A stretch of 60,144 nt of DNA, the filler included. It is 7 parts of 7 records of this genome, joined end to end, with 100 filler letters (N's around TTAATTAATTAA, not from the genome) between each part and the next. Parts side by side here need not be neighbours in the genome. Positions count along the whole stretch, not along the records: positions 8,658 to 17,123 come from SRR31147125_601; 6 more parts are not named here. One strand, 5' to 3'. The position numbers and the translations under genes were made by a program. Positions within the stretch are counted from its first letter, which is position 1, and each line of letters opens with the position of its first letter. Under the pieces are notes generated by a model. It saw only the letters and a list, made by a program, of their open reading frames with translations. It was not told where the DNA came from and made no database searches. Below, in pieces: positions 78 through 35,415 of this stretch.

Positions 78-1061
78 TCATGAAAATTGATGAAGGTAGA
101 CGCGGCGTTCCAAGACAAAGACACTTCCAGGTTCCGATTTTGCTCGCTTCTTTCCTTCAGAACACGCATCGTTGACTTGAATAAATTTTTCAAAATGGGA
201 TGCCGTGATATCAACGCCGGCCATGCTGATACTCACCAGGGGAAATGTGCGTTCCTCTCCCCGGCGGTCAAAGGAGACAATGGATTTTCGTTGTTGATCT
301 TCAGCCGTGTAGAACCGGGGAATGCCCTCGTCAAATCGCTCGATAATGGTTTGACTCACCGCCTCTACGTGTTCCATGGGTAGGGTGAAGACAAAGTCGT
401 CGCCGCCGATATGACCGATGAAAAAATCATCAATGCCGCTCTCTTGAAGGCTCTTTTGGAGGGTGGCGCTGTTGAAGAGAATCAGCTCATCCCCTTTGGC
501 AAATCCGTACTTGTCGTTGTACGCTTTAAAATAATCCAGATCCGTATAAATGACGCAGATGTTCTCTTTTTGCACCAGGGCGGACTCAATCCGGCGGGCG
601 ATGCTGTTGTTGCCGGGGAGCCCCGTTAACGGGCTCGCATCCAACGCCATGCTGTAGAGGCGCTTGAGTTCCGTCATGGCATTGCTGAGCTTCAGGTGGT
701 TTCGAATTCTGGCCCTCAGGATCGGCGGACTGACCGGTTTGGTGATGTAATCCACCGCCCCGAGATCAAGCCCCCTGGTCTCATCGCCCACCTGATTTCT
801 GGCGGAGATGAAAATGATGGGGATATCGACCAGCATCTTGTCTTTTTTCAAGCGGGAACAGACTTCGTAACCGTCCATTTCCGGCATGACAATATCCAGA
901 AGGATGATGTCCGGGCGAATCTCCCCGGCAAGCTGAATGGCCTTTTTCCCGGTTTTTGAGAAGAATGTATCATACTCGTTGCGGAGAAGATCAATGAGGA
1001 TTTTGATGTTGTCAAGGGCGTCATCGACAATCAGTACTTTGTAACGGCGATGGTTATCCAT
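78..1061 (-). CDS. Response regulator: N-terminal REC plus GGDEF-family domain (GGDDF variant)
   Basis: REC motifs LIVDD, LLDIVMPEMDG, KP. Cyclase motifs PLTGLPGN, DLDYFKAYNDKYG..GD, HIGGDDF. Confidence 0.88.
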   Translation of the reverse strand: MDNHRRYKVLIVDDALDNIKILIDLLRNEYDTFFSKTGKKAIQLAGEIRPDIILLDIVMPEMDGYEVCSRLKKDKMLVDIPIIFISARNQVGDETRGLDLGAVDYITKPVSPPILRARIRNHLKLSNAMTELKRLYSMALDASPLTGLPGNNSIARRIESALVQKENICVIYTDLDYFKAYNDKYGFAKGDELILFNSATLQKSLQESGIDDFFIGHIGGDDFVFTLPMEHVEAVSQTIIERFDEGIPRFYTAEDQQRKSIVSFDRRGEERTFPLVSISMAGVDITASHFEKFIQVNDACSEGKKRAKSEPGSVFVLERRVYLHQFS

Positions 1062-1072
1062 ATCGAGATATC

Positions 1073-4000
1073 CTAAGGCGTCTTGGAGAAATGAGCAAAA
1101 ACACGATGGAGAAGATCCAGGGCCGCGTCAAAATCAAGCGATGAGATGCGTTGAGTCATTTTTCGGGCATCTTCAAGGGCGGCAACGGATTCATACTGCA
1201 TGATGAGATCGATCTGCTCCATTGCCATGGCATTGTTGGCTTCAAGCAGTGAGTGAAGGGTTCTCAATTCATGGAGCAACTCGGTTTCGTCTCCAATAGA
1301 TGAAAAAGAGGGCTCTTTTTCATCCTGATCCGAGGGCGTTGATGGCGTAGCGTGGGATCCATGAGTCACGTTGGCGCTTGCCGCTGAGGGTTTGAGGGAC
1401 CCGGAGGGGGCGCTGCTGTCGTTGGATGAGTCTGGAAGATCGGTAATAGAGGCGTTGGCCGTATTTTGCTTCAGCCAGTTTTCAATGGCCGCGCGTCCCT
1501 TTTTGAGTTCGGTTTCAAATTGGTCAAGCCACTCCCAGGCAGATGCATTTTTATCCATGAGTGAGGTCGGCAACTTATCCTGTTGCGCCTGCACCGGCAA
1601 GTCCGTTTCTTCGTGTCGGGTCCTTCCATCCTGGAGAATTTCTTCGACTGTTTCATGGGCTCGATTTCCATTGCCTGCTTCGGGCAATTTAGCCGCGGAA
1701 CCGTCATATCGCCGGTCCATGAGGAAATGTTCAAACAGACCGGCACGATGAAAGACTCTGGTGAGCCCGATATTCCCGCTGACGCCCTTGATATAGTGAA
1801 TCAGTTTGGCTGCATGTTCAAAACCCGCCTGATGAAGTGCCTGCTTGACTTCATCCGTCTTGGACTCGATTTCAGATAGATACTGTTTTAATAAATCCCG
1901 ATAGAGTCCCAGATTCCCGGCTAGACGTTTGATTGCCGACGGCGTATCGAGAATCGGGCCGCTCACTGTTCCGGCGATGGGAGATGCCGGGTTTTGAAGC
2001 GGTTGGGAGGAATCGGAGTTCTCTTGGGCGGAGTGCGTTTTGAAATATACCATAACCGGATCCGTCCCGTTTTCTCCATTGGTTTTTCTTTCTCTGATCG
2101 GTGAAAGAGTATCCGGGCTTGCGAGGGATTGAGAGACGGATGACTCAGGTGTCGGGAAAGACGGAGGAGGCTTTGGGGGGGATAGGGTGGACTGAGACAC
2201 TTCCGATTCGTTGAAAATGGATCTCCTCTTTTTTTCCGCCTGTGTCAAATCGGTTTGAGCAGGATGAGACGATGAACCGGGAGAAAGGGTCTTTGACAGA
2301 ACTTGGAAGAGAAGGTCCGGATCGATGGGTTTGCAAATATAGTCATCCATTCCCGCATCCAGTGCCAATTGACGATTTTCATCATTGCAGTGGGCGGTCA
2401 TGGCAATGATGGGGACCTTGTCGAGATATTGCCGGATTTTTGTCGTGGTTTCATAGCCGTCCATATCCGGCATGCTCAGGTCCATCAAGATGGCATCAAA
2501 GGGCTCCTCAAAGCCATCGCCACTGCCCTGGCGCCACTGGATGCCGATTGAACCAGCACCCCCAATTTCCCCAGAAGTTCGGTGCCGATCTGCCGGTTGA
2601 TGCTGTTGTCATCCACCAGAAGGATCTCTTTCCCCTTAAACGGCTTGTGATCCAACGTATCGATGCAGACCCGCTCCGACAGCCCCATGCGTCGTTTTTC
2701 ATTACTGAAGATATCCATGAGGGAATCGAACAGAATGCCGAGATTGATGGGCTTGGAGATGAAGGCGTGGATCCCGGCATCGTTGGAATGGCTCATCAAC
2801 TCCCCATCCTTGTCAAATGCAGAGATGAGAATGATGGGGAGGGTCTCCAACTGAGGCTCTTTTCTGATGATCTCGGCCAGTTCGATGCCGTTGATCTGCT
2901 TCATGTGCCAATCGGTGATTAATAGATCGAATCCGTCGGGCTTGCCCATCCGCTCCCGGAGCATCTTCAGGGCATTCTCTCCGGAATCCGTCGAAACGAC
3001 ACGGCATCCGAAGTTTGTCAGCATTTTTTCCAGAACGTTCAATGAGACGGAATTGTCATCCGCCAACAGGATATTGAGTCCGGCAATTTGCATGGGGACC
3101 GACAGTTTGCGATGGTGCTCCTTGGGTTGCAGTTCCAGATCCACTTCAAAGGTAAAGGTGCTGCCCTCCCCTTTTTTACTTTCAACCCAGATGGTGCCGT
3201 TCATCAGCTCCACCATTTTTTTGCAGATGGCCAGGCCCAGTCCGCTGCCGCCGTATTTTCGAGAGGTGGATGACGATTCCTGGGTAAATGAGTCAAACAG
3301 TCTTGGCAGCATCTTTTCTGAAATCCCGATACCGGTGTCGGAGACGGCAAAGCGAATGGTGGTATGATCTTTGGTCTGATTGATGAGGTTGACCTTGATG
3401 AGAATCTGGCCGGCGTCGGTGAATTTCACGGCATTGCTGAGCAGGTTGGAGAGAATTTGTCCCAGGCGAAAGGGATCGCCGATGACAAACCAGGGCACTT
3501 TATCGTCAAAGAAGAGAAGCAGTTCGATGAATTTCCGGGAGGCATCATGGTAGAACATGCCCGAGATCTCATCCAGCATCTGGGGAAGCTCAAAGGGCGT
3601 GTGTTCCAGATCGATCCGCCCCGCTTCGATTTTGGAGTAATCCAGGGTATCGTTCAAAATTCGAAGTAGTGCATTGGATGAAGCGTGGATTTTTGTCAGG
3701 TAATCCCGCTGTTTTAGTGTCAGATCGGTTTTCAATGTGAGATCGCTCAATCCGATCACGGCGCTTAAGGGAGTCCGTATTTCGTGGCTGATGTTGGCTA
3801 AAAATTCGCTTTTATGCCGGGAGAGAAGCTCCAGTTCCTTATTTTTCAGTGCCAATTCGGCATGGGCCTCAGCCAGGTGATTCTGGGTTTCTTTCAATTC
3901 AGAAATATCCACGGCAATGACACACATCACCACCCGTCCGTCCGGCCAGGTGATGGCTTTGCTTTGAATCTGATACCAGCAATCGTCTACCTCATCGAAA

Positions 4001-4254
4001 TGGTCATAGGTGAGGCTGTTGCCGTTGGGTCGGAGTCGATCATCCAATACCGCGTTCATCCTGCAGAAAATGCATTGGGTATCTGAATCGTAAAGCGCTT
4101 TATGACAGATTTGTCCACAATAGTTTGCCCCTCTGAGCCTGATCATGACCCGGTTCATGTGAATAATTTTCATGGTTTGGACATCAATCACATAGACGCC
4201 GAACGGCATGACATCGAACATAGTTTCGATGAGGGTATTTTCATTTAACTGCAT
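1073..4254 (-). CDS. Hybrid sensor histidine kinase (PAS-like, HisKA, HATPase, REC, REC, HPt), ~1060 aa, split by a 1-nt frameshift near 2510
   Basis: H-box EFLANISHEIRTP, N-box NLLSNAVKFT, DTGIG, GGSGLGL. Adding one base near 2510 joins ORFs 2485..4254 and 1073..2488 and rebuilds the second REC (..EEPFDAILMDLSMPDMDG). HPt motif IHYIKGVSGNIG. Confidence 0.88.
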
Positions 4255-4385
4255 GGTACACCTGTTTCGGATCTCTCTTTGACTTACAAAGCCCCATAAT
4301 CAAACCTTCCCTTCCCCCAATTCTTGTCGGCCCTGTCGAAATGAACAATCCTTTGATGACAGGGACATGGGGTGTGGGGGTTCCG

Positions 4386-4772
4386 TTAAAGGTTGACCTT
4401 CCAGAATTTTTCCAGAATACGATCAATGGATTCTTTGAGCTTCTCTTTTTTAATGGGTTTGATCACATATCCCAATGCACCGGCCTCAATGGCCTCGATC
4501 ACCATCTGTTCCTGGCCGTGGGAGGTCACCACAATGATGAGTGCGTTCTCATCATGTTCACGGATTTTTCGGGTCGCCTCGATTCCGTCCATGTCCGGCA
4601 TGGTAATGTCCATGGTGACAAGGTCGGGTCTGTTTTCTTTATATTGTTCCACGCCCGCTCTTCCGGTTTTAGCGCTCTGTCCGACCGTGTGGCCCAGATC
4701 TTCAATCATTTTCGTCAGTTTTTTGATGGTAATGGCGGAATCGTCCACCACCATGATATTGAGGGAAGGCAT
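4386..4772 (-). CDS. Single-domain CheY-like response regulator
   Basis: 128 aa with VVDD, MDITMPDMDG, T87-equivalent (VVTS) and KP. Confidence 0.9.
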   Translation of the reverse strand: MPSLNIMVVDDSAITIKKLTKMIEDLGHTVGQSAKTGRAGVEQYKENRPDLVTMDITMPDMDGIEATRKIREHDENALIIVVTSHGQEQMVIEAIEAGALGYVIKPIKKEKLKESIDRILEKFWKVNL

Positions 4773-4774
4773 GT

Positions 4775-5314
4775 CTATTCTCCGGATGGGGTTGAAGTTG
4801 CGCTGTTCAAATCGGAAAGGGTATGGTGCGATTCACTCTGTTTGGGAGCAATGCAGAAAATATTCATGCTCCCGTGAATGGAGTGCAGCTCAGTGGCAAA
4901 AAACTCCGCACTTTTACTTTTGGCAATGCTTTTGGCTTCCGTGATCATGATGGGCGGCGTCAATGTCACCTTGTTGAGCCCACCAAAATCGGCTGTGGCA
5001 TTGCCTACCACAATGTTGATCATATCCCCGGCCGTCTCTTCCATATAGTCCTGACGTTCGTCCGGATCCAGATCCAGTTCATCCGTGTAGATCCGAAAAA
5101 TTTTGTCGATAAATCTCTTTTCATAGCTGAAAATCACATTCATGTTGATTTCGCCGCCGAGGGTAATCACCGTGGTGAGATAGCGGAGGGTCAGCCGATG
5201 ACCGGGAACACGGGTCGTCTGCCGTCCTTCAATTTCAATTTCCATCTCATCCCGTAAGAACGAGATGACGCGCTCCGAGACAATCTCAATGAGCTTTTGG
5301 GTGCGGATAGCCAT
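4775..5314 (-). CDS. cheX: CheX-family aspartyl-phosphate phosphatase
   Basis: CheX-like core EETAGDMINIVVGNA (ExxN-like motif, here DxxN) and LTPP. ATG at 5314 is preceded by AGGAG; the ORF is open to 5383. Confidence 0.75.
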   Translation of the reverse strand: MAIRTQKLIEIVSERVISFLRDEMEIEIEGRQTTRVPGHRLTLRYLTTVITLGGEINMNVIFSYEKRFIDKIFRIYTDELDLDPDERQDYMEETAGDMINIVVGNATADFGGLNKVTLTPPIMITEAKSIAKSKSAEFFATELHSIHGSMNIFCIAPKQSESHHTLSDLNSATSTPSGE

Positions 5315-5460
5315 TGATTGCTGAACTCCTTCCTGTCTATTTGAACGCCGGATAAACGATGGGGAAACGGGGACAACTTTCAAATCCGTCCCTGTTTGCC
5401 CGGTTTAACCAAGGCTTTCGATGTTCGTTTTAAAGTACGCCACTCATGGGTGTCATACCG

Positions 5461-8195
5461 TTAAAGTGGAATTCTGAATATAAATTGTGTGCCTTTGTCA
5501 ATTTCCGTTTTGATCTCTATTTGACCGTTGAGTCGCTCCACCTCATGCTTGACGGCATTGAGCCCGACGCCCCGACCCGACAGTGCTCCCACCGCTTTGG
5601 ATGTGCTGAAACCGCTGGAGAAGATGAGATTGATGAGCGCTTCATCCGACGCCTGTTTCACCTCATGCAGGGTCATCAGATTTTTTTGTACCGCCCGTCC
5701 TTCAATGGCGTAGAAGTCGATTCCCCGGCCGTCGTCCGTGATGCGGATCTCCACCGCTTCCAAGGGGCCTTCAACCGATCTGACATCACACCTGATAGTG
5801 GCGGATTCGGATTTCCCGGCGGAGATGCGCTCCTCCGGAGTCTCAATACCATGATCCAACGCATTTCGAAACACATTGACAAGGGATCGGGTGAGTGGTG
5901 TGAATCGCTCCGGATCCACTCGAACGGCCTCGCCCTCCACCTGAAATGGCGTGATCTGTTTCCCGGCTCGTCGGGCATAGCGCAAAATTCCGTCCACATG
6001 ACCGTCCAACAGCGACTTGAGCGTCACATAACGGATACGACTCACCGCCGTCAAAAGATGCTGCAGGACGTTGCCGACGCTCAATCCGGCATCTCCATTC
6101 AAGCTGTCCCAAGGCGGGGCTTCTCCGGGCAGGGTAATTGCTCCCTCGCTCATGAGCAGTTTTCTGGCCATCTGCTCCATTTTCATGGCATGATCCCGCC
6201 CAATGGAAATCTGCTTATGGTGCGTCATGAAGGCGTCTCCGAGGATCTCCCGGATAACGGAAAGATCCTGATCCAGGGCTCTTTCTTTCTGAAATTCCAT
6301 GACAAACAGTTCAATGGCTTCCTGGGGCGGGGCGTTCATCATGAGCATTTCCGACAATCGACTCTCCATGGTGTGGAGAAACTTCGGCAGGGCGATGAAA
6401 TCCTGTTGGGCAAAGAGTCCTTTAAACGTATGTACCGGTCGATAGATATCGGAAATGAGGGGTTTATTGTCAATCGACGGATTCCCATGACTGTCACTCT
6501 GTTCAATGAAGCCATTGAACAGCTCCGGGAGTTTACGGGATTTAAATTGCCTGTACTCATCGATGATGGCAAAAAAATCTTGGGAATCCCGGACAGCTGC
6601 CACTACGAATTTCAATCGTTGTCTTTCGGTCTCCACATCCTTCTCAAGTTGTTTCTCCCGGCTCAAGTCCGTGAGGATCATCATTATTTTCGGGCCGTCG
6701 ATGATTTGATATTCCGCTTTCACATGTTTGTTGCCAATGAGATAGCACGGTTTGAGTATGGATAGGTAGAGTTCCTGTTTCAAATCCAAGGGTTCGTTAA
6801 TGGCAAGTCTCACTGTTTTTTCAAGTAGGGCTTTTGCCGTCGCATCGTTTTCTCCATCAAGGAAGAGAAGATCGCAGATATTTATTCCGGACGCAGGTTT
6901 TTCAAAAATCGCCTCACACTCCCGGCTCATCTCGGGGTCCACAATCAAATCCTCTCCAAATGAGAGAAACCCTTGACCGGAGTTATCCAGAAACTCCCCT
7001 TTGGCTTTTGAGGCTTTTTCAGCAACCTTCATGGCGGTTTCCACCTCTACGTAGGCTTTTTGAATCTTTTGCTCCGCCTCATGAAGCTGACGATTTTTTT
7101 GATCATCATCATTAGAAAGAGGGAGACGACCAAGGCAATGGCGGCAAATCCTCCGATAATGGGGAGAATCCGTTTTAGGACATAGGCGCTGTCAAATCCG
7201 TGTTCAATATGAACCGGAATCCAGCTGTTGCTGATTTCCAATCGGGTGGACTCTGGAATCTCGGCAAGTGTTTTTTCCAGGATGGATACCATGAGGGGCC
7301 ACTCCTTTTTTACCCCCATTTTCATCCGAACCTCAGGCCAGCCGCTGTTGGCTGCAATTTTCAGATTGTTCCAGCCGTTTTCGGCAATGAGAAATCCCCC
7401 GACGGCCGCACTGGTGAGGGCTGCATCTGCCTCACTCAGATGTACCGCCTTTATGGCATTGGGATTGGTTTGCACAAAAACGAATTCAATGTTGAGGTCG
7501 GAATGTTCATTTTTCAGTTTACTGTAAGCAACCTGGGTTTTGTCAACAGCCACCCGTTTGCCGTCCAGATCCTGAATCCTATGTATCGGTTCACCATCCT
7601 TACGGGTGACGATCACCAGCTGAAATGCAAGATAGGGGTCTTGGATGAATGTGAGAAACGCTTCCCGATCTTTCCTTTGAGCCAGGCAGGGGAAGAGATC
7701 CACCTCTCCCTTTTTTGCCAATTCAACCCCCTCTTTAAATGGGACATCCAGTAACCGGAGTGTCAAGCCGAGACGCTTTTCCAGAATTTGGATGTAGGCT
7801 TTGACAATGCCGTCGGCAGCACCGTCTTTTATAAATGAAACCGGAATGAATTTTGGAGGGATGACGTAGCGGATGGGCGTGTCTGAAATGGATTGAAGCC
7901 ACTCGATTTCTTGATTCGTCAGCGTTTCTGGGTACTCTTGTGCTTCAATTCCGTTTTGGGGATTCAGTGAGAGCATCCCAAGAAAAGCAAAAAGGAAACT
8001 CAGCGCTTTAACCCGACAAAAAATGTTGAAATGTAAAAATGAATTGGATCTGTCAGAGTGTTCAAAGGATTTTATCAGGTTGATCAGGCAGAATACCATA
8101 TTCACGGCCCCCATCATTTCATATAGCGTATACTGCATTAAAATCGATCTGTTCAATGCGCTGTTCATTGTCCAGCCAACATATTTGTCTACCAC
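5461..8195 (-). CDS. Membrane sensor kinase: periplasmic solute-binding (SBP_bac_3-like) domain, TM, PAS-like region, HPt-like His and CheA-type HATPase with no CheW domain. Split by a frameshift at T7 7094-7100
   Basis: One extra A joins 7047..8195 to 5461..7044 (..IKKNRQLHEAEQKIQKAYVEVETAMK..). HPt motif YRPVHTFKG. CheA-type boxes RNALDHGIE, DDGRGID, FSSGFST, GRGVGL; the protein ends at GTQFIFRIPL. True start uncertain. Confidence 0.8.
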
Positions 8196-8557
8196 ATTTG
8201 ACTTTTGTTGAACAATAGTAAATGAAAAAAACAGCGCCGTACCAAAAAGATTGAAATCGGGGGAACCACAGATATATCCCCCGATTACGAGCGGCTATCA
8301 GAGTAAAAACAAGATCATTGTGTATTAATTTTGTTTTAAAGCTTTATTCTGATCTTGATTGGAAATACAAAATTATTATCTCTAATTCTTTTATTATTGC
8401 GGATAAAAAACGTTGGATGAGAAAACAAAAAAAATATTATTGAATTTTATACAAAATTGTGTTATCCACAGCCACAATAAATGATATCTAATATTTTAGA
8501 TGTTTGATTTTTAAATGGTTTTTTATATGAACTCGAGAGTCATAACTTCTCATTTTT

Positions 8558-9012: not shown

Positions 9013-10251
9013 CTACTCCTTTTTAGTTAAACTTAAAACCGTAATTTCTGGAGGCATTCCAATTCGTGCAGAATAAATTACATGGCCAAAGCCACGGTTT
9101 ACATAAAGCAACTTACCGTTTTCCAGGTACAGCCCTCCCCATTTAGGATATTTAAATTTAGAGGGGCTCCATTCGAAATTACCAATTTTAATGCCCATTT
9201 GCATTGCATGAGTATGCCCCGAAAGAGTTAAATCTATATTATAATCATTTGTAACTTTTGCATCGAAAAAAGAAGGATCGTGCGATAGTAATATTTTAAG
9301 AGAATCCTCAGCAACATTTTCGATAGCCTTTTCAATGTCGCCCTCCTGTGGGAAAGGTGGATAGCCCCAATTTTCGATACCGAGCAAAGTAATAAAATCG
9401 CCGTTTAAGTTAATTTTTCTATGCTCGTTCATTAAAATATCGAAACCTATTTCCTTGTGGTGATTAATTATTTTTGAGAGGTTCTCTTCAGGGGAATCGA
9501 CTTTATTCCAGTGAAAATAATCCTTCCCGCTATACGAATGATTTCCGGTTACCGAATACATTCCGTATTTCGCTTTTAATTGTTTTAACACCGGGGAAAA
9601 TTTCACCACCTCGTCGGCATGAACTGTTATCAAATCGCCTGTAAATAAAATAATATCCGGATTTTCTTTGTTCACCAAATCTATTCCACGTTGCACGTGT
9701 TTCATGTTTCCAATAAAACTGCCAATATGCAAATCGGAAATCTGAACAATTTTAAAATTATTGAATGAAGAAGGAAGGTTTTCGAATTCTAAGGGTACTC
9801 TCTTGATTTTAAAATTAAACCTGCCCCACACAATTCCAACTAATACTGCCAACATAATAAAACCTGAAACCGTAATTCCTGTCAAAACCATGAATTTGTT
9901 TACGGATAACCACGCTGAGCTATAGCTCATTGCCACATCGATAAACAACCATAAAAAATCGGATAAAATTAGAAAAGCAATAAAAAAGAACTTTGGGAGA
10001 TAAAAGAGTAAAAATGAAGCAAAGAACAGCATCACTTTTTTAAATCCTTCAGGAGAAATATTTTTAGGTTTGAAAATAAAAATTCCTGAAAAGCCCAAAA
10101 TAAAAGACAAAGGAATGAACAAAAAAAATATTTTGAAGATATTGTTTTCATGAAACGGTAAAGCAGTTAGTCCCCAATAACTATAAATATCTACCAATAA
10201 AATAACCAGAAAAAATACACTTACAACTATATAATTCTTAAGTTTTTGCAT
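9013..10251 (-). CDS. Membrane-anchored calcineurin-like metallophosphoesterase (YkuE/YaeI-like)
   Basis: N-terminal TM helices; motifs SDLH, TGD, GNH, LSHDP, GHTH, NRGFG. Confidence 0.9.
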   Translation of the reverse strand: MQKLKNYIVVSVFFLVILLVDIYSYWGLTALPFHENNIFKIFFLFIPLSFILGFSGIFIFKPKNISPEGFKKVMLFFASFLLFYLPKFFFIAFLILSDFLWLFIDVAMSYSSAWLSVNKFMVLTGITVSGFIMLAVLVGIVWGRFNFKIKRVPLEFENLPSSFNNFKIVQISDLHIGSFIGNMKHVQRGIDLVNKENPDIILFTGDLITVHADEVVKFSPVLKQLKAKYGMYSVTGNHSYSGKDYFHWNKVDSPEENLSKIINHHKEIGFDILMNEHRKINLNGDFITLLGIENWGYPPFPQEGDIEKAIENVAEDSLKILLSHDPSFFDAKVTNDYNIDLTLSGHTHAMQMGIKIGNFEWSPSKFKYPKWGGLYLENGKLLYVNRGFGHVIYSARIGMPPEITVLSLTKKE

Positions 10252-10289: not shown

Positions 10290-11140
10290 TTAACGGTAAT
10301 CATCCGGATAATCTGTAATTACCCCATCCCAATTACTCATTTCTGAAGCCTGGCAAGCGCTTTTTTTTCCACACCCCAGGCATTTGCTTTCTTTCCATTT
10401 GCATGTATTTTTTTCAAAAAAGCATTCCCCGAAAGCAATTTATGCATGTTAAAGGCACTGGCATATTTATATTTATTAAAACTGAAATAAGTAATTTTCC
10501 CATCGAATACAAAAGGTAAAAAGCGAAATTTGAAAAAGAATAATTTTTGAAGTTCTATTTCCGGTGCATATTTATTTATTTCGCTAAGACTCTCATCATT
10601 AAAAGATTGCACTACACACCACTTTTCAGCTCGAAACTTGCGAATAGCATTTACAACTTCTTTTTCAATTCCGGTATTCACATTTGATTTTTCTTTTATT
10701 TCAATCAACAGTTTCGATTTTGCATTAACTCGTTTAATCACCTCCTCCAAAAACGGAACTTTTATTTCACTACTCCGACTCCCGAATTTATTATCAACAT
10801 TTAATAATTTTATGTACGATGAGTTCAACTCGGAAATTTCGCCCGTTCCATTTGTCGTTCCGTTCACCGTGTAATCGTGCATAACAATTATTTCATTGTC
10901 TTTGCTTAAATGAACGTCAATTTCAATACAATCAGCTTTTGCACGTAATGCAGAATCTATTGCAGGTAAAGTATTTTCAGGTGCAACTCCTGAGGCTCCG
11001 CGGTGGGCAATTATATAAAGGTTTTTTACTAAGTCGCCCGATGTAGGTTTGCTTACAAAAAATTGAATGGGAACAAATAGTAATCCCAACAGTATCAGTA
11101 CAATGAATAGTATTAAAAACAAATTCATAACGCGCTTCAT
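10290..11140 (-). CDS. Glycerophosphodiester phosphodiesterase (GDPD family) with N-terminal anchor; 3' frameshift near 10361-10368
   Basis: AHRGAS..PENT, EIDV, HD, IEIK, QSF. The conserved terminal DGVITDYP is in the shifted frame ending at 10290. Confidence 0.9.
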
Positions 11141-11143
11141 AAT

Positions 11144-14100
11144 TTATGTTCTTATGCCAAACAGCCTGTTAAATGCTATTCTTATTACATTATCGAACCA
11201 GCTAAAATAATCTTTTACTTCGCCACCGGCCTTAAAACTATCGATAAAAAATTTCCCAACGGCCTCGTCATGCAGCAATCCCCATATAATAAAATTTCCA
11301 AACTTGTGGGTAAGTAAATCCCCAATGCTCTCGTGAGATTGATTATAAGACATTAAATCTTCGCGGAAAGTATCCATTTCGGGAAAATCGGAATGAGCTA
11401 ATTTATGATGGATGAAATATGCAACTTCGCGTGGGTAATAACTTTTTATGGTACCAATCATGCTGCACAAATAAGGTCGCAAATCCATCTGGTATTCTTC
11501 ACGTTCACATTTTTTTCTGTCGAAATTCATAATTTCGCGTTCGTGTTTGAAAAGGCCAATAACATAATCGAACAACTGAATTGCACTTTTGGGTTTTCCA
11601 AAATCGGTAACAAGAGTGGCTATATTTTCGATACAATAGTAGAGCAATTCTTTATCTTTTCTTTTAAACGCCATATCAATCAAATTCCGAAAAACAGGTA
11701 GCGGATAAGGATCTCCCGGACGAGTTCCTCCATCGCCGTAATGCTTGCAATAGGCCGCTCCGTACCAGTTTAAAGGATATTGTTTGTAAGGCAACCCTTT
11801 GTTTGCCTGTTCGTTTTTGTGTGCATAAAACAATCCTTTACATCGTTTCGACCATTCTTCTGTTAGATTAGAAAATACATCAAATGCTTCCATATTTGGA
11901 TTATCCGATTTTTCAATGGAATGGAACAATACATACAACATCGACATTTGCATGTAGTCTAAATAGGGCTGGTCGGCCGGTTTATTCACCACATCCATAA
12001 TTATTGGTTTTATACGTTCCCAATCGGCCCAACCCTGCACAACCAGAACCCGCTCAATAAGAAAATAACTAAAAGCATCTCCGGTATCGATTCCTTTTTT
12101 TAGTACATCGTGAAATTGTTCGATACCTGTAATTTGAGGATTGAGAAAAGGAGTGATGTTTGTAAAATTTCTTCGATGCCATTCATCATCTGCACCATCT
12201 GCCGGAATGTTTTCCCAAAAATTCTGATACTCAATTCCGTTATTTACATATGCCACCTGAACCACAGCTTGCCGGCTCATAAAAAACTTTAAAAAGGGCA
12301 TAACAACCTTTATTATTGTAAAGTTTATGGTGAGTTTTTTCAGAATATCAGTCCAGGTCTTTTTAATTTCATCGCTAAGTTTATAATCGTTTCTTTCAAT
12401 AAGCGCATCAATAACCATTAAAAGGCTAAACCTGCCTGCCGGTTCTACAAATGCTTGCTGAAATTCTTTCCGTTTAGAGCCGCTTGCAAGCGATAAAAGT
12501 GAGGTGTCGAGAATATTTCCGGATAAGTGACTAAGAATTTGCTTTCCTATTTCGACATTATATTTTGATATGTAATAAATGTACAGCGAAACATTATCGC
12601 GAACTTTTGCCAACGGATCTGACATTGCTTTCCACAATAATTCGAAAGGAGAATTGTAGCCTTCAAACAAATTCTTTTCGTAGATAGGCGATTTGAAAAT
12701 TTCGTAGATAACCTGGACCGCAATTTTTCGCACCTGTATTACTGGTTTTAGTTTCTCCTGAAGCACCTCTATTTCCTGGTTTAAAGATTGTATCTCGCTT
12801 ATGGTTAATTTATTTTTACCCTTGTTCCCTTTTTCAATAAGAGCTTCTTTTTTTGTAATCTCTTCGCCAATTGGGCCACTCTCCTCTCGCTCGTATTCCA
12901 GTAATTGTTCTACTATAGAACAAACATCTTCGTAATTATCTGTAATTAACGACGAGAGCGTATTCATAACCAGCTGAGATGCTCCATATACCGTACTGTT
13001 TGCAAGATCAATTAAAGTGTATGGATCTCCACCCGTTCGGTAATAATCTAAAACCAAAGCATGACGCAACGCATCGTTAATTACGGCATAGCCTTTCATG
13101 TCGTTTAATTCTTGCTCGTAAGCTTCTACCGGAATAGACAAACCTTTTCGTAGTCCTTCGGTTTCGTCCTGTACAAAAATTCTCGCGTACATGTACTCAT
13201 GAAACCTTTCGTATGTAAAACGAAATTCTTCTCGCGGGGTAGTTTTTTCAACTCTTAAAAAGCCTGCGTCAAGTAGAGTCATAGCCGGCTCCCGCCATTC
13301 CATTGTTGCACCTTTAAACAGCTGGCTTGCCAGTTCATTCAGTTCGTTCGATTCATTTTCGCAAGCCGCATAAAGTTGCTGCATAATAAGCGAATCTGTT
13401 TTTCGGTTTCGCATAACCCGGGTAAAATCTTCTAAAATCATTTTCTGAAGATTTCCACTTTTACTCTCCGACAGTTTCTGTATTCGGGCTTCAAACAATT
13501 TAACTGAATCGAATTGCTGAATATTTTCCGGCAAATTGCCATTTGCATAAATCTGGCAAGCCATTTTTAAAACCATTGGGTCGTGCAATCGCGAGAGCGC
13601 ATAAGCATATTGCGGTTCGTGCAATGTTTCTATTGTTGTAGAGAGGCCAAATTTTTGTTTGTATTTAGGATAAACATCATCAAATTCTTCATCCGAAAAC
13701 CCTTTTAACGAAATGCTTTCGCGTTGCTCAATATCAGGAATATCATCGGAAGTAAAATAAACGGGCAGGTTTAATGTATCTTCTTCTGAACGAATGGCTT
13801 CCTCCCAGGTATATGTTCTACAAGTAATTAACACTTTAAACGCATCGTATTCGTTAAGCATCAGCAAATTATCAATTGCATGCAAAAGAACAACGGCTCC
13901 GTTTTGTTCCGTATCGCCATTGTAATTTAAACACTCATTAATTGCATCGAAAAAAACACAACCTTCGATTTGCTTTTTTTTGCCAGTTTATTAAGGCTCT
14001 CCAGCGTTTTTTTGATGGGAGTTTTAGGTTCACCAATTAATTCTGAAATGGCTTCTTCAATGCTTATTTGCGAAAATATTTTACAATTGAAGGTTATAAC

Positions 14101-15362
14101 CGGCATTCCTTCCTCAACAAATTTTTCAGCAAAATTGCAAATTAGGTTGGTCTTTCCCGAACCTGCGTTTCCCAATAAAACAAAGGCTCTTTTTTCGTCG
14201 AGATTAAAGAAATAATCCCATGCTTTGCTAATCTCTTTTCTTCCAACATAAATACTCGTGTCGTATTTTTCAATCCGCATTTGCCCCAAAAACTTGTTTG
14301 TTTGCTGAGTTAAACGCTCCTTATATTCATCCCAACTTTTTCCGCTGGCTATTTCAATTTTATAATTTTTGCCAATATTTATTTTGTCAAGAACATCATT
14401 AAGAAAAGATACAAAGTGGTCTTTAAAAAGCTCGGTGGTTTTCTTCTTCGCTTTTAAATCGGGCGAAATGTAAACCATCTTTTTTAAGTTCTTTTCGTGA
14501 ATGGACTGGAATAAATATATGGCCCGTTCTTTTTCAGCACCATCTTGTATGGGCAGGTAAATAACAAACGGAGTTATGGCCACAACCTCATCGTCCTTAA
14601 AATGATCGAAATCGTCAATTTCCCGATGAACGAGGTAATATTTTTCGCGTTCCAGTTTATGGTCTGAAAAAATAATTACCCCCACATCACTAAGCCGTGA
14701 ACTTTTTAAAGGAATTACTGCATATTTTCCGGGAGTTTTTTCATCGTTAATAATTTTATCAACCGTAAAAGTGGTTAATTTGGCCAGTGGAGCCATGGCT
14801 TCCAGCATGCGAAACATTCTGGGCTCAATTAGTTTCAATCCATCAGCATATAACTGTTCATCAAGCGAGGTGTCGTGTCCTAAATAAGTATTTCGAAAAT
14901 ATGCAATGCCCTTATATTCTTCTGCTTTTTTGAGCTCCATCCCTGAAGAATATTTCCTTTGGGCTCTGTAATCATTTCATAAAGGCTTGCAATTAATGGT
15001 TCGTCAGGAATCAAATTATGTGCTTCTTTAACTAAAACAATAAATACTCCATTAATCCAACCACCTGTCGACAACGGTTTTTCGACTATGCTGCTGGCAA
15101 CTTGCTGCAATTTTTCAGTAAAGGAAATTTTGCGGTACTTTATTAAACTAAAAATTAAACTCGAACAATATTGAGCCGAGATTTCGTAAAAATCAATGTA
15201 ACGCTTAAATGCTTTCGAATACTCTTCCTGAACAACATTCATTTGGTAGTCGCGCAAAATAGAAGCAATTGAATACGGAAATGTTTTATAAACTTTATTT
15301 AGTTGAATTTCAAAAATCTCTAAATCATCAGGAGAATAACTGGCAACAAATTTATCGTACAT
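11144..15362 (-). CDS. Large STAND/NACHT-type NTPase (~1,400 aa) with N-terminal HEPN-like domain and long C-terminal helical region, split into three ORFs by frameshifts at 14926-14931 and 13950-13956
   Basis: One added base in each homopolymer fuses 14880..15362, 13927..14940 and 11144..13885. Walker A GNAGSGKT (14149-14172); restored Walker B VVFFFDAINE; sensor-1 KVLITCR; DPMVLKM; winged-helix motif FTYERFHEYMYAR; FRNTYLGH near the N-terminus. Confidence 0.82.
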
Positions 15363-15577
15363 AATTGGTGGTTTTCCGATTGCAGGTTTGGATTATGAAA
15401 CTGATTGTAACTTTTGCTAAAAAGATAATTATATTTTTTAGAACGACACATAATTTGTAATTGAATCATAAAAAAAATTAAACCAAATAAATATTATTGC
15501 AAAATAGAAGTGACTGATACTTTTCAATTTATACTAAAATTTGTTTCTTTGTTTAAGACCAAACAAAATCAATACCT

Positions 15578-16897
15578 ATGGGAAACTGGAGCAAATTAGC
15601 ATCTGCAAAACCCGAAAGTGCCTTATCCATATTTTGCGGAGTTCTTGAATATTCAGAAGATATATTAGAAAAAATACTAGACGGCGAAACGTTTGGTTTT
15701 GAAAAATGGCAGACACATATTAAAATTATGAATATGAGTTCGGCCGAAATTCTAAAAGGCTTTAGCAAGTTTTATTACGACAGTTTTGTAAACACAATAT
15801 TTCCGGATGTAGACAACAAAGAAAAACAGTATTACAACAAAAAATTTGCAGATCAGACCATTCGCCTTTCAAAAAAAATTGACACTGTTTATCCTGTAAA
15901 TTTCAGGAAGGGAAAAGAAAACGTGGCTCTTGACATTAAATTTGAATACCTCGATTTATATTTCTTTCCACACGGAATTGTTTTATACTGTTTTAAATGC
16001 GATTTAAAAGATTTCACTCTTGATGAAATTACTCTTATAAACAGTCAGCTTCGGAATATTGGTGGCAACCCTGACACTAAGTTTATAACCGATTTACTTT
16101 CTTTTTTAAACCCAATTGAAGGACAAGAACAAGAAAAAGATTTTGTGATTTTCGGGAATAAGTTAAAGGTATATTCCTTAATTGAACACAATGAAAACTT
16201 ATCGGAAGTTGAAGAAGACAATTTACTGTACGACATGGCCGCTTGCGCGCCAGTTGGGGCTGCCGCAGGAGCAAATTCTTTTTTTAGCCCTTCGGAAGAA
16301 TACTACGAACAGTTAATGACCAGTAATAAAATTTCGGTATTTAAAAACTGGAAAGGAATGGCATTGGTAGACTCTTTTACTTGTTTGTTTAGAAAAGGCG
16401 CCTTAGATAATTTCACCTGGGAAATTGCTTATTTCAATTTACTATATATTCATTCGCTATACAAAAAGAATTTTTTATTTAAAATTAATAAGGAGTTTTA
16501 CGCCAAAGGTGCCAATCAACAAAAACTGGAAGATCTGTTTTTCGATTTTAACAAATACTACAATCAAACACATATTTCGTACAACTTCCTTCCTCCAATT
16601 ATTTACAAAAAGATACTTTTTTCGTTGGCTATAAACGAAGAATTAGATCTTTTAAAAGACGGGATTGAAAGAGCGAATGAAAAACACAAGGAGAAGCGCG
16701 ATAGAATGATAAACAACATTTTAACTGTAATCGCACTGTTAACCATATTTTCTGTAATTTGGGATTTATCGGAATGGCTAAATAAACTAATTGCAGGAGA
16801 AACACATACATATCTTATTATAAGTGGTACACTTTCCGGATTGGTTACGCTAACACTAATACTGTTTCTCATAAAAAATTACAAAAGAGAACATTAA
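15578..16897 (+). CDS. CorA-like membrane protein (large soluble domain, long helix, two C-terminal TM helices, no GMN motif)
   Basis: 439 aa. Charged stalk EKHKEKRDRMINN followed by TM1 ILTVIALLTIFSVIW and TM2 YLIISGTLSGLVTLTLILFLI. Family assigned from topology only. Confidence 0.6.
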   Translation: MGNWSKLASAKPESALSIFCGVLEYSEDILEKILDGETFGFEKWQTHIKIMNMSSAEILKGFSKFYYDSFVNTIFPDVDNKEKQYYNKKFADQTIRLSKKIDTVYPVNFRKGKENVALDIKFEYLDLYFFPHGIVLYCFKCDLKDFTLDEITLINSQLRNIGGNPDTKFITDLLSFLNPIEGQEQEKDFVIFGNKLKVYSLIEHNENLSEVEEDNLLYDMAACAPVGAAAGANSFFSPSEEYYEQLMTSNKISVFKNWKGMALVDSFTCLFRKGALDNFTWEIAYFNLLYIHSLYKKNFLFKINKEFYAKGANQQKLEDLFFDFNKYYNQTHISYNFLPPIIYKKILFSLAINEELDLLKDGIERANEKHKEKRDRMINNILTVIALLTIFSVIWDLSEWLNKLIAGETHTYLIISGTLSGLVTLTLILFLIKNYKREH

Positions 16898-17425: not shown

Positions 17426-18283
17426 ATGGAATTGAACGGTACAGGATTGGTACTCGAAGGTGGAGGACTACGGGGTGTGTATACGTCTGGAGTTCTTCGG
17501 TTTTTTATGGATAAAAAGCTCTGGTTTCCCTATGTCATAGGTGTTTCGATGGGGGCATGTAATGCTGCAAATTATATATCCAAACAACCGGAACGGAACC
17601 GAATCGTTAACATACGCTATGTCAATGATCCGAGATACCTCAGTTATGTTCGTCTTTTAACAAAAGGCGAATTGTTTGGAATGGCTTTTATTTACAAAAC
17701 AATTCCATTCGATTTGGTTCCATTTGATTTTGATACTTTTAATAACAACTCGCAAAAGTGTATTACAGCTGTAACAGATTGTTTTAGCGGTGAACCTGTC
17801 TATTTTGAGAAAAAGGATATTGGCGACGATTATTTTGAAATATTAAAAGCGTCGACAAGTTTGCCTTTTATATCAAAACCAATACACTATAACGGCCGGA
17901 TCTTTATGGATGGAGGTATTTCTGATTCCATCCCGATTCGTAAAAGTATTGCAGATGGCAATAAAAAAAATGTGCTTATCCTCACACAGCCCAGGGATTA
18001 TAAAAAGTCTCAGGAAAAATTGACAAAATATAGCACATTATTTTATTCCAGGTACAAAGGACTTTGTGAAGCCCTGGAAAACCGTCACATCAGGTATAAT
18101 GAAACAATGGATCTGATAAACCAGCTTGAATCGAACGGTGATATTTTTATCATCAGGCCACAGCATTCGCTTAATGTCGGCCGCGCAGAGAGAAATAAAG
18201 ACAAGCTATACAATACCTATGATGTTGGCTACTCTGATGCCTCAAAAACATACAACGACCTGTGCTCCTACTTGGAATCTTGA
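17426..18283 (+). CDS. Patatin-like phospholipase
   Basis: GGGLRG oxyanion loop, GVSMG nucleophile elbow, DGG motif. Confidence 0.92.
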   Translation: MELNGTGLVLEGGGLRGVYTSGVLRFFMDKKLWFPYVIGVSMGACNAANYISKQPERNRIVNIRYVNDPRYLSYVRLLTKGELFGMAFIYKTIPFDLVPFDFDTFNNNSQKCITAVTDCFSGEPVYFEKKDIGDDYFEILKASTSLPFISKPIHYNGRIFMDGGISDSIPIRKSIADGNKKNVLILTQPRDYKKSQEKLTKYSTLFYSRYKGLCEALENRHIRYNETMDLINQLESNGDIFIIRPQHSLNVGRAERNKDKLYNTYDVGYSDASKTYNDLCSYLES

Positions 18284-26439: not shown

Positions 26440-26588
26440 ACCATCAACAACATTTGTCCGGCACATGACAGCAAAAGAATATGACTGATGTCTTGCTGGT
26501 TATCTGTCTTAATTTATTATCGTTTGAATTGAGAATAAAAATCCGAGGTCTTTTGACTTTGGATTTTTTTTCTCTGAAGGAGGTGGCT

Positions 26589-26993
26589 TTGTCTCACTAT
26601 TCAGATTTAATCAGACAAGCACAAAAAGCTCTGGAATTTGCACACGCTCCTTTTTCACATTTTTCTGTTGGGGCCGCTGTACGCACCCACACCGGTAAAG
26701 TTGTCAAAGGCTGTAATGTTGAAAACAGTTCTTATGGACTTTCAATGTGTGCCGAAAGAATTGCCATATTTAAGGCGATATCTGAGGGAGAGAATAAATT
26801 CCAGGCTGTTGCGATTGTCTCATCCAATGGTAAATTGTGCCCACCATGTGGAGCCTGCAGACAGGTTTTGTGGGATCTTGCGGGAGATATCGATGTGGTG
26901 ATGGAAGACGAAAACAATACGATTCATGTACATAAACTTTCAAAATTATTGCCTTACGCTTTTGACCAGGGATTTTTACCGGATGAACAATAG
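26589..26993 (+). CDS. cdd: Cytidine deaminase (homotetrameric type)
   Basis: NVENSSYGLSMCAE and PCGACRQ zinc motifs. TTG start after AAGGAGG; the ORF is open from 26481. Confidence 0.93.
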   Translation: MSHYSDLIRQAQKALEFAHAPFSHFSVGAAVRTHTGKVVKGCNVENSSYGLSMCAERIAIFKAISEGENKFQAVAIVSSNGKLCPPCGACRQVLWDLAGDIDVVMEDENNTIHVHKLSKLLPYAFDQGFLPDEQ

Positions 26994-27609
26994 AAATAAG
27001 AAAAAAAGTACTTTTATTCTGGGTGTTGCAGGTGCATCCGGCTCTGGCAAAAGTTTTTTTGCCGATCGGATTTTTTCATCTTTAACATCAAGGAAGGTCA
27101 TTATCCTTTCGCAGGATTATTACTATAAAGATTTATCGTCGATTCCTCCTGCACAAAGAGCTTTGTATAATTTCGATCATCCGGATGCCATTGATTTTGA
27201 CTTGCTCATTGAACATATCGGGTTACTTAAAAAGCACCAATCCATACAACACCCAATCTATGATTTCACTGTTCACAACCGTAAAAAAGAATCTGTCACT
27301 GCAGGTCCGGCAGACATTGTCATCATCGATGGGATCTTAATCTATGCGCTGCCAGAGATTAGAGATCTATTCGATTTTAAAGTTTATATTGAGACACCTG
27401 CGGACATCTGTTTTATTCGTCGCCTGCAACGTGATACACTGGAAAGGGGCCGTACGATGGAATCCGTTATTTCACAATACCTGGAAACCGTCAGACCCAT
27501 GTATGAACGTTTTGTATTACCAACCAGAAAATATTCAGACCTGGTCACCAGAGGTGAAGGTGATATGGAAAAAGCACTACAACTTATCTTGCAGGAAAAG
27601 CTAAGATAA
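26983..27609 (+). CDS. udk: Uridine kinase
   Basis: GASGSGKS, QDYYYK, NFDHPDA, RRLQRD..ERGR. Confidence 0.93.
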   Translation: MNNRNKKKSTFILGVAGASGSGKSFFADRIFSSLTSRKVIILSQDYYYKDLSSIPPAQRALYNFDHPDAIDFDLLIEHIGLLKKHQSIQHPIYDFTVHNRKKESVTAGPADIVIIDGILIYALPEIRDLFDFKVYIETPADICFIRRLQRDTLERGRTMESVISQYLETVRPMYERFVLPTRKYSDLVTRGEGDMEKALQLILQEKLR

Positions 27610-33159: not shown

Positions 33160-35403
33160 CTAGTAATTAACAACCGTTATTTCTGTACGTCTGTTTGCTT
33201 GGTGTTCATCTTCTGAACATTCTATGCCATTTACGCACCGGTTCTTAAGTCTTGTTTCGCCATAACCTTTTGCTGAAATCCTACTTCTGGCTATTCCCTG
33301 GCTTACAATATAATTTACGGCAGACTCAGCCCTTTTTGCGATAATACCTGATTATAACTGTCCGATCCTCTCGAGTCTGTATGTGAGCCAAGTTCAAGGG
33401 AAATATTCATGTAGTCTTTCATAAACTCAACTATCTTATCAAGCTCTATGGCAGCATCCGGTCTAATATTCCATTTATCTAAATCATAATAAATATTCGG
33501 GATTTCAATAGATTTTCCAACAGCAATTTCTTCCATCTCTGCCTCAATATATTCCTCTACATTTATCCAACCCGGTTCCATATCTTTTGTTGATATCTTT
33601 CCGTGCTTCGTGAAGTAACCCTCTTTCTTAAATACGATATCGTAGTCTGTCTCTGGTAATAAAAGCTGCCTGAATTTACCGTAATCATCCGTAATTTTGG
33701 TTACATCTTGCTTTCCACTCCTGGCAGTGATTATAACATCTACATCCTTTATTCCTTCCCTGGTTTCTTTTTGGTAAATTAAGCCATAAACGCCCCATTG
33801 CTTAATTTCATCAAGGTAGATATCAACGTAATATTTTGAGCCTTCAACTTTAGTTTTGTCTACAAATATTTGCTCTTCTGCTCGTTCGAAACTATCCTTT
33901 GCAGCATTTATTTTCAAATAGATATCTGGCGATACCAACAACTCAAAATTTCCATTCTCATTACTAATTGTGTCAAGCATTTTTATCTGTCCATCATCAA
34001 AAACGTTGACACTAGTATTGGGTAAAATGGTACTGTCTTCGCTGCTCTTCGTTGTTCCAATTAATGTTAACAAGGGTGAATGTTTATTTACAAACTCGAA
34101 CCTGTAAATATCATCATCTCCCGCGCCACCTGCTCTGTTAGAAGCTATATAACCATAGGCACCACCTTTTTTTAAGGTAAAAGCTAAAATCGTCATAAGA
34201 ACTATTTAACGGGTACCCCATATTAATAACAGCATAGTTACCCGGTGAATATTCTGCTGCCATAAAAATATCTAACCCACCAATTCCTAACAGACCATTT
34301 GATGAGAAATACAGGAAGCCCTCTTCATCAAAGAACGGGAACATTTCTTCACCTTCTGTATTAATATCCGGGCCCAGGTTAACAGGTTCAGACCAGGTTG
34401 AATCTATTCTTTTGATGTAATAAATATCAGAACCTCCATATCCTCCAGGCATATCTGAGGCAAAAAACAAAGTAGAATTATCGGGTGAAATGGCTGGATG
34501 TCCACATGAGTAATCTATACTATTAAAAGGAAACTCCTGTAGCTTCTCCCACTCTATACCAGTTCTTTTTGCATGATAGAGCATGAAGTGGTTTTCATCG
34601 TCTTCACCCTTCTTTGGAATCCCATTTTGAAAATTGTTGCGTGTAACAAATACCTCTTCCCCGTTCGGACTGTAACAAATTGGTCCATCGTGATACCGTG
34701 AGTTAACTCCTGTTGACAATAGGCGAATTTTGTTATTTGGTATTGAGCTATCAATTGATGTAGTAAAAACATCCAGATACGGATCCCCTTTCCAGGGATA
34801 TATAAATTGAATAAATGTTGGGTCTGGTCTTCCTGATGTGAAAATTATTTGGTCATCAAGCTCTATGGCACCAAAATCAGGGTATCTCGTATTGAAATAA
34901 ACAGGTTCTAAAATATAATCTTCACTTCGCTTTAATTCTCTTGCGAATCGTGCTGATTCTAATTGCAAGGTAGCCCGCGAATCATTCTCATTCAATTCTT
35001 TATATTTTGAAATCCACTTATCTGCCTCTATATATTTTTCATTGTATTTTAACGATTGTACATAGAGATAAATGTCTTCTGCTGTTGCTTCATTATTCTC
35101 AACAAGCATATTAAAATGTTCTTCTGCTTTTACCGGATCATTAATTTTGTAATAAGAAATTGCCAAATTCCGGCGTACAGATGCCGGGGAGAATCCCTTT
35201 GCAATTAGCTTCTCATATTTTTCAATTGCCTCAATATATGCCAAGCCATCGAATTTTTTATCAGCCTGTTTGTGTATTATATTGGTAAAGAGGGAGCCAG
35301 AACCTTCATCATCTTTTTCTACTGGATTGCCATTTGCACCAATTGCAACAATACAGAAAATTCCAATTAAAATATAGGGTAAATTCTTAGTAAACATTTT
35401 CAT
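33160..35403 (-). CDS. PorE-like OmpA-family protein (TPR, PD40/WD40, carboxypeptidase-regulatory-like, OmpA_C), ~747 aa, with frameshifts at 34167-34173 and 33333-33337
   Basis: PD40 motifs (LFFASDMPGGYGGSDIY, GGLDIF). OmpA_C NIYYDLDK, SHTDSRG, and in the shifted frame RAESAV..GYGE..NRRTE, ending at 33160. Confidence 0.88.
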
Positions 35404-35415
35404 TTTTTTTGATGG

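Follow-up and report, generated by a model that had tools for sequence, protein, structure and literature searches.

In most descriptions, bacterial STAND sensors of the Avs and bNACHT types are lone proteins that recognise a phage protein by binding it, and in type III CRISPR systems CorA proteins are found paired with a degrading enzyme. Fusions of an N-terminal HEPN domain to a STAND NTPase have also been described in bacteria, as far as the accessible part of that article goes (Anantharaman et al. 2013, PMC3710099), and the available text of a STAND survey published in Nature in 2026 describes the sensor of Avs2 as clade-specific (PMC13581612). The gene discussed here, with its neighbours, resembles all of these in part. 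It lies on the minus strand at positions 11144..15362 of a window of 60,144 nucleotides (the whole stretch of DNA that was analysed, joined with filler from seven records that need not be neighbours in the genome), where it appears as three open reading frames (ORFs) that make up 1406 codons after one base is added in each of two homopolymer runs. Its product is almost certainly a STAND/NACHT protein with a conserved partner, a GDPD-family phosphodiesterase. A preliminary description, made from the DNA letters, had proposed a stand-alone, Avs-like anti-phage sensor hidden by two frameshifts.

Reading frames of the split gene

The three ORFs, all called on the minus strand, code for 160 (15362..14880), 337 (14940..13927) and 913 amino acids (13885..11144). 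The frame breaks between them at two runs that are each one base short: a T6 run of the plus strand (A6 in the coding strand) at 14926..14931, and an A7 run (T7 in the coding strand) at 13950..13956, the latter inside the Walker B strand. P0001, the closest intact homolog, has 1406 amino acids and 91% identity to the 913-residue piece, and in a tblastn comparison with window positions 11001-15600 it aligned in three collinear pieces, with residues 1-156 in frame -2 (82% identity), residues 141-471 in frame -1 (87%) and residues 462-1406 in frame -3 (90%). These switches of frame coincide exactly with the T6 and A7 runs, across which P0001 reads WSSKQAEEY and KVVFFFDAINEC, respectively, and the repaired gene of 4221 nt (1406 codons and a stop) has the same length as P0001. 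When the 913-residue piece was used as query, 37 proteins were found, 35 of them single proteins of 1246-1444 amino acids; the two short ones come from contigs of 2.5 and 1.7 kb. Coordinates, runs, collinear alignment and single-protein homologs all agree, then, with the proposal that the three ORFs are one gene. The motifs quoted in its favour (GNAGSGKT, KVLITCR, DPMVL, FTYERFHEYMYAR and KYDTSIYVGR) are all found in the window, and the Walker B sequence VVFFFDAINE, created by the second correction, is the one that intact homologs have. The gene had also been said to be missed by annotation, which is true of this window only: intact homologs are already in the databases, as hypothetical proteins with a Pfam NACHT domain.

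A public DNA sequencing run (X1), possibly from the source sample, contains 0.98 of the gene's sampled words, and contigs assembled independently from it were compared with the window over positions 11000-15500. One of them (2848 nt, depth 6.6) spans 12616-15461 and has an A inserted behind 13949 and a T inserted behind 14925, being otherwise identical over its 2848 nt. Both added bases are in this way supported by the intact homolog and by the contig. Because the contig has the extra base in each run and nothing else, the frameshifts look like consensus errors and not like the marks of a pseudogene, and the gene of the organism is very probably intact, the breaks in the window being homopolymer under-calls of the consensus.

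That the frameshifts are real, as those of a decaying pseudogene or as slipped-strand phase variation at both homopolymer tracts, is very improbable. Such a reading would account for the presence of both breaks in the window as assembled, and a mixed population is conceivable, since contigs drop minority variants and one would not be visible in them; moreover, the case for an artefact hangs on that single contig, which has a depth of 6.6 and comes from a run that could itself be the source of the window. Against real frameshifts stand the contig itself, in which both runs are one base longer, and the direction of the breaks, each of which lacks one base from a run of six or more. Furthermore, there are no stop-creating substitutions in the gene, its pieces keep 82-90% identity to the intact homolog throughout, and similar breaks occur in another gene of the window.

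That other gene (35415..33160, minus strand) codes for a protein of the outer-membrane type with PD40, CarboxypepD_reg and OmpA domains (Pfam) and is spread over three frames, with breaks at homopolymers near 34170 (A7 on the coding strand) and near 33330 (A5), the latter interrupting an OmpA motif between LSQK and RAESAVNYIV; these breaks are probably consensus errors of the same kind as those of the NACHT gene. The ORF pair 26481..26993 / 26926..27609 was also considered as a frameshift and was rejected, as it consists of two genes, for a cytidine deaminase and a uridine kinase. The window assembly carries homopolymer errors, and other genes will be split likewise.

GDPD and CorA-like partner genes

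The surroundings of the gene were compared in 8 loci from species genomes and 52 from metagenomes (identified by L numbers), in which ORFs were called and their products clustered by BLAST; several groups of loci are near-duplicates, so the loci are not all independent. In the window, the next gene downstream (10337..11140, minus strand) begins only 3 nt past the stop codon of the NACHT gene and codes for a GDPD-family phosphodiesterase with an N-terminal hydrophobic segment (Pfam GDPD, PF03009, 117.4 bits against a cut-off of 23.6). Of the 49 loci whose DNA extends downstream for at least 800 nt, 44 have a GDPD homolog as the very next gene on the same strand, with gaps of -97 to +64 nt, and this adjacency persists even where the identity of the NACHT proteins is as low as 27%. 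The loci without a directly downstream GDPD are L017, L029 and the Campylobacterota-type loci L007, L013 and L022. All 49 GDPDs retain the catalytic residues (H46, R47, E73, D75, H88, E147 and K149), and 39 of the 49 have a hydrophobic N-terminal segment, lipoprotein-like in some, that both Campylobacterota-type copies lack. This signal-anchor or lipoprotein-like N-terminus suggests that the GDPD is exported in most members.

A second, frequent partner is encoded divergently from the NACHT gene, at 15578..16897 on the plus strand, and is a CorA-like membrane protein of 439 amino acids. Homologs of it are found near the module in 25 of the 35 loci with enough upstream DNA, as one of the two nearest upstream genes in 21 and just beyond the GDPD gene in 4 more, and a more distant copy precedes the GDPD gene in L013. 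The match to the CRISPR-associated CorA model of PADLOC (PDLC01174) is weak (E 9.2e-5) and limited to residues 312-437, the 439-residue protein has no Pfam match, and an Atlas cluster at rank 22 (score 0.94) has PF01544 in 27% of its members; its two putative C-terminal transmembrane helices were recognised by eye in the sequence. Co-folding of the N-terminal 380 residues of the L001 homolog with its cognate CorA-like protein gave a score of 0.00, which is no verdict and is evidence neither way. In 7 loci the CorA-like gene has beside it an ORF of 193 residues that matches no Pfam family, and tblastn found no homolog of this ORF in the window. The ORF cluster c7 (487-529 amino acids), whose members adjoin the NACHT gene in L014, L039 and L040 and follow the GDPD gene in L021, was considered as a relative of the CorA-like protein and rejected for lack of detectable relatedness.

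With GDPD directly following in 44 of 49 loci and a CorA-like gene nearby in 25 of 35, the idea of a stand-alone anti-phage sensor has to be given up in favour of the core of a conserved NACHT-GDPD(-CorA-like) module that may be defensive or may serve in envelope stress. In the match of its C-terminal ~125 residues to CRISPR-associated CorA models, the 439-residue protein is reminiscent of the SAM-AMP-activated CorA effectors of type III CRISPR systems (PMC10600005). The pairing of a membrane protein with a phosphodiesterase-type gene also resembles that of CorA with a degrading enzyme. The module differs from those systems in that the phosphodiesterase is a GDPD, apparently exported, and in that the CorA match is weak, with no Pfam CorA domain; cas10 or CRISPR genes were not seen in the ORF maps of the loci, although no specific search for them was made. 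A literature search for GDPD or CorA combined with NACHT or STAND gave nothing relevant. The text of the 2026 survey that was accessible contains neither GDPD, glycerophospho, CorA nor phosphodiesterase (its supplementary clade tables may list the family; PMC13581612), the accessible text of the HEPN article has 0 occurrences of "glycerophospho" and "CorA" and so no mention of such partners (PMC3710099), and conserved GDPD/CorA-like partners are not mentioned in the Avs papers searched, as far as their text without supplementary tables is concerned.

Outside these partners, the flanking genes differ from one group of loci to the next (about 15 groups). In L007 and L013 (L007:5528-16187, L013:1023-11260), GDPD is upstream of the NACHT gene in a same-strand operon that also holds HAD, CDP-alcohol phosphatidyltransferase and inositol monophosphatase genes and two unknown ORFs, and a gene for an MscS channel follows the NACHT gene in L007 and L022. 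This Campylobacterota-type arrangement suggests a link to the metabolism of polar lipids or inositol-phosphate osmolytes.

Several other genes were noted around the module. A protein of 903-906 amino acids with two AAA+ domains and AAA_lid_6, with weak PADLOC matches to the TRIP13, DolB and IetA models, adjoins it in three loci (L002:655-3366, L003:177-2888 and L004:15548-18268). In the window, a gene for a membrane phosphoesterase of the Metallophos family (9013-10251, minus strand) lies downstream of GDPD, and is also found next to the module in L005 (72% identity), and a gene for a patatin-like phospholipase with DUF6363 (17426-18283, plus strand) lies beyond the CorA-like gene; both are further lipid/phosphoester enzymes around the module in this genome. 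The GC content drops sharply, from 0.48-0.52 in the first 8 kb (window 1-8200) to 0.26-0.43 afterwards, and this composition junction may be native rather than chimeric, because homologs of the 589-residue ORF at 2485..4254 (cluster c13) are found close to the module in L001 and L011. No tRNA, tmRNA or Rfam family was found in the 60 kb of the window (1-60144).

Domains and closest relatives of the NACHT protein

The central part of the protein (residues ~360-740, 13147..14286, minus strand) comprises a NACHT/STAND NTPase followed by predicted helical and winged-helix parts, as delimited by Pfam, PADLOC and motifs, and carries a Walker A (GNAGSGKT), a Walker B (VVFF(F)DAINE), the sensor-1 TCR and FTYERFHEYMYAR. 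P0001 exceeds the Pfam cut-offs for both NACHT (PF05729, 36.9 bits against 26.7) and nSTAND3 (PF20720, 37.0 bits against 27.2), in agreement with the proposed STAND/NACHT NTPase of about 1,400 residues, whereas the split pieces of the window alone stay below them, with 17.9 (NACHT) and 18.7 bits. All 43 aligned full-length members, down to 27% identity, retain Walker A, Walker B (DA[IVL]NE) and the arginine of sensor-1. A family profile search of the PDB sequences returned generic AAA+ P-loop matches only (7 at E <= 1).

The PADLOC model of Avs2 PDLC02164 matches P0001 at E 3.2e-23, over residues 364-734 and positions 320-658 of a profile of 1504. The PADLOC Avs2 models align solely at profile positions ~286-658 of ~1400-1576, and no match to them was obtained over residues 750-1406 of P0001; in the window, the Avs2 model matches ORF2 and ORF3 collinearly. 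The predicted winged-helix region is covered by the Avs2 hidden Markov model (HMM) alignment at residues 530-734, and its FTYERFHEY motif is invariant. With the NCBIfam model of Avs2 (NF041813), P0001 reaches E 4e-16 and 58 bits, and P0007 34 bits, against a cut-off of 1000. Since the Avs2 models cover the NTPase/winged-helix part only, the nucleotide-binding oligomerisation domain (NOD) is Avs2-like without the protein being an Avs2; it is a new, uncharacterised member of the STAND/NACHT family. The earlier label "Avs-like" consequently holds for the NTPase/winged-helix module (PDLC02164) and not for membership in Avs2 (58 against 1000 bits). Avs2 shares with the family this module and the common layout of N-terminal effector, NOD and C-terminal repeats, and differs from it in that its models leave the N-terminal 360 and the C-terminal 670 residues uncovered and in that the C-terminal domain is here another, family-specific solenoid. 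The likeness to the bNACHT proteins is of the same general kind (Pfam NACHT above cut-off in a long protein with N-terminal effector-like and C-terminal repeat regions), while the models HyoA (E 0.015, 12.9 bits against a cut-off of 1200) and EruA (E 0.016) give weak matches at the level of the P-loop only.

The C-terminal 667 residues (11147..13146, minus strand) form, in a model of residues 740-1406 of the window's own sequence built with a 39-row alignment (mb1b6bdaa985a), an all-helical, HEAT/ARM-like solenoid, which is a putative sensor or partner-binding domain. The model consists of helices throughout, with a predicted local distance difference test score (pLDDT) of 85.4, and the likenesses found for it are generic: Foldseek ranks karyopherin-beta, CAND1 and beta-catenin first, at E ~1e-3, with nothing in the PDB at E <= 0.001, and a wide VIA-align search gave generic helical-repeat rows only (Z <= 9.5). 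A phmmer search of 1.84 billion representatives with this domain returned 66 proteins, 48 of them at E <= 1e-30, and in the long hits (at least 1000 amino acids) the domain is preceded by some 645-940 residues and mostly reaches the C-terminal end. With only 66 proteins found, the solenoid is family-specific and the family small. Dozens of Trp, Tyr, Asp, Asn, Arg and Cys positions of the solenoid are invariant across 36 sequences, and most members of the family have 1404-1406 amino acids and 55-91% identity.

The N-terminal part was modelled on the first 380 residues of a Chlorobiota homolog from L004, with a 37-row alignment (m164fea53694b; pLDDT 84.9, predicted template modelling score 0.83). 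Helices at residues 11-195 are followed by strands at 197-337, which correspond in the window to a HEPN-like helical bundle (residues ~1-195, 14780..15362, minus strand; from the model, VIA-align and a motif) and to a beta-rich middle domain (residues ~197-340, 14344..14775, minus strand), the latter barely covered by VIA-align rows. Just past the first break, R157-N158-x3-G162-H163 fits the HEPN signature Rx4-6H; the R...H motif (spacing 4-5) is kept in 39 of the 40 members that cover the site, and R157 and N158, as well as P29, E60, G100 and W102, are invariant in 31 of 31 distinct N-termini. A candidate effector at the N-terminus, the NOD and a long helical C-terminus follow one another in the protein, and the predicted effector-STAND-long C-terminal layout is so far borne out.

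In a wide VIA-align search with residues ~26-195, at least 10 of 50 rows were HEPN proteins (Z 6.2-8.8), of which four are titled HEPN, four are Csm6 and the others are LsoA and 1wwp. Their Z values include 8.0 for 2hsb, 7.5 for 4nqf, 6.9 for the sacsin HEPN domain 3o10, 6.9 for the HEPN toxin 8xdj, 6.5-6.9 for the four Csm6, 6.9 for LsoA and 6.2 for 1wwp. Rows for Roquin (Z 8.8 and 8.2), HI0074, YutE, SO_3166 and AbiA are those of HEPN carriers as well. Both 1wwp and LsoA belong to HEPN families according to the part of the HEPN article that was available (PMC3710099). Three results tell against a HEPN assignment: G-protein-coupled receptors and designed bundles score equal Z values, and Z 6-9 is common by chance for helical bundles; Foldseek found no match to the N-terminal model in the PDB at E <= 0.001; and Pfam HEPN families are absent among the matches of 31 N-terminal segments at E <= 10. 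Taken together, the VIA-align matches and the motif make it reasonably probable that the N-terminus is a HEPN-type ribonuclease (RNase). A HEPN-like bundle with an Rx4-6H motif ahead of a STAND NTPase would resemble the HEPN-STAND fusions already mentioned, although the examples given in the accessible text have TPR, S1 or cold-shock domains, and their N-termini are HEPN domains whereas here no Pfam HEPN model matches (PMC3710099).

A cluster of the ESM Atlas named RnlA-toxin_DBD, found with residues 1-200 of P0001 (score 0.78), was too weak to be used, and the other clusters are unnamed. Two members have longer N-termini: that of L005 (L005:5737-10152, plus strand) carries an extension of ~65 residues matching the sterile alpha motif (SAM) domain (PF07647, E 7.6e-9), and that of L035, with 1812 amino acids, an extension of ~400 residues. 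Added SAM-type domains are common in conflict systems.

Distribution and possible role

Among 301 genomes in the order of one carrier, three match at E <= 1e-20, two of them over the full length, one of which is the carrier; among 90 genomes in the carrier's family, the only one with the gene is the carrier itself (the seed genome). Homologs are found in Bacteroidales, Prolixibacteraceae, Chlorobiota and metagenome-assembled genomes of Sulfurimonas, and on this sequence evidence the family is small, rare, patchy and horizontally scattered.

The best overall explanation, about which belief and doubt are evenly balanced, is an intact NLR-type NACHT-GDPD(-CorA-like) module with a HEPN-like RNase switch and a conflict-type output; that the module is an anti-phage or conflict system is possible, at slightly less than evenly balanced. 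In such a switch, the C-terminal solenoid would bind a trigger and the NACHT module would oligomerise upon binding of nucleoside triphosphate, which would gather the N-terminal HEPN-like domains as in RNase L, Ire1 and Csm6; the active RNase would then cleave RNA and arrest the cell, a conflict or abortive-infection output. As the solenoid is strongly conserved and the partners are envelope proteins, a variable phage protein is a less likely trigger than some condition of the envelope or of the conserved partners, over which the protein would keep watch in a guard-like manner. The GDPD and CorA-like partners could instead form a second, membrane-directed effector arm. A more specific version, speculative and rather unlikely to be right in full, is an undescribed three-gene NLR-type system wired to the envelope, in which the solenoid would either stand guard over the exported glycerophosphodiesterase and the CorA-like protein or be gated by them, so that envelope or lipid damage, for example from phage entry or lysis proteins, would trigger the HEPN RNase. 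This would be a bacterial NLR that monitors a component of the host envelope instead of binding a phage protein.

A conflict role is favoured by the rarity and patchiness of the family, the toxin-like, RNase-type head, the Avs2-like NOD and the SAM-domain member in L005, and several observations weigh against it. No copy was found at E 1e-10 on 72,556 plasmids or in 50,697 phage records. The flanks (108 ORFs, 3 per side, at 22 representative loci, in a rough HMM scan that is not a DefenseFinder or PADLOC system call) show no defence island: 17 PADLOC families appear at 1e-8, each in 1-2 of the 108 ORFs and some of them generic (AAA+, radical SAM), and the Pfam scan gives ordinary genes such as TonB receptors, PEPCK and UPP synthase. 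The association with defence genes that had been expected is, in this sample, nearer to absent than to present. In the accessible text of the survey, 198 of 589 STAND clades are classed as defence-associated (PMC13581612). The C-terminal domain, like the length of the protein, is unusually conserved for a phage sensor. The three Campylobacterota-type loci place the NACHT gene by MscS, and the operons of L007 and L013 resemble lipid/osmolyte metabolism. As for the GDPD as an effector, it is apparently exported in most members, so that its direct activation by a cytoplasmic NACHT protein is hard to picture.

Many of the same facts would fit a non-immune, accessory system of envelope, lipid or osmotic stress, in which the work would be done by the exported GDPD and a CorA-like channel and the STAND protein would sense a cytoplasmic cue of glycerophosphodiester or phospholipid turnover and regulate by RNA cleavage or scaffolding; this is a less likely account, though a serious one. 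GDPD is a family of metabolic enzymes, here with its catalytic residues kept and usually with an export signal, and lipid enzymes recur in the L007/L013 operon and in the Metallophos and patatin genes, with MscS as a further neighbour; a flank without defence island, a strongly conserved C-terminal domain and the majority of STAND clades not classed as defensive (PMC13581612, accessible text) point the same way. A family so rare and so patchy across phyla would, on the other hand, be unusual for homeostasis, the bundle with R-N-x3-G-H resembles a toxin-type RNase, Avs2 is the closest to the NOD among defence models, and one member has an added SAM domain at its N-terminus. Far less likely is a receptor of the Avs/AVAST type acting alone, which would bind a phage protein (e.g., terminase) through its C-terminal repeats and to which the neighbours would be irrelevant. 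Avs2 of PADLOC and NCBIfam gives the best named matches and the tripartite effector-NOD-repeat layout is present, but the Avs2 models stop at the NTPase/winged-helix part, far below the NCBIfam cut-off, the sensor is far more conserved than expected of a receptor of phage proteins, and the persistence of the GDPD gene beside such divergent NACHT genes is unlike the behaviour of irrelevant neighbours.

For the window, the practical result is modest, in that three hypothetical ORFs become one intact gene. As for the family, its candidate RNase head, its very conserved solenoid tail and its two envelope-associated partner genes persist down to 27% identity. A STAND protein linked in this way to a CorA-like channel and to an exported phosphodiesterase of lipid head groups would differ from the lone sensors described so far. 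If the conflict-type NACHT-GDPD(-CorA-like) module is the right explanation, anti-phage NLRs would include sensors that guard the envelope; otherwise, the family would be a clean example of a non-immune bacterial NLR.

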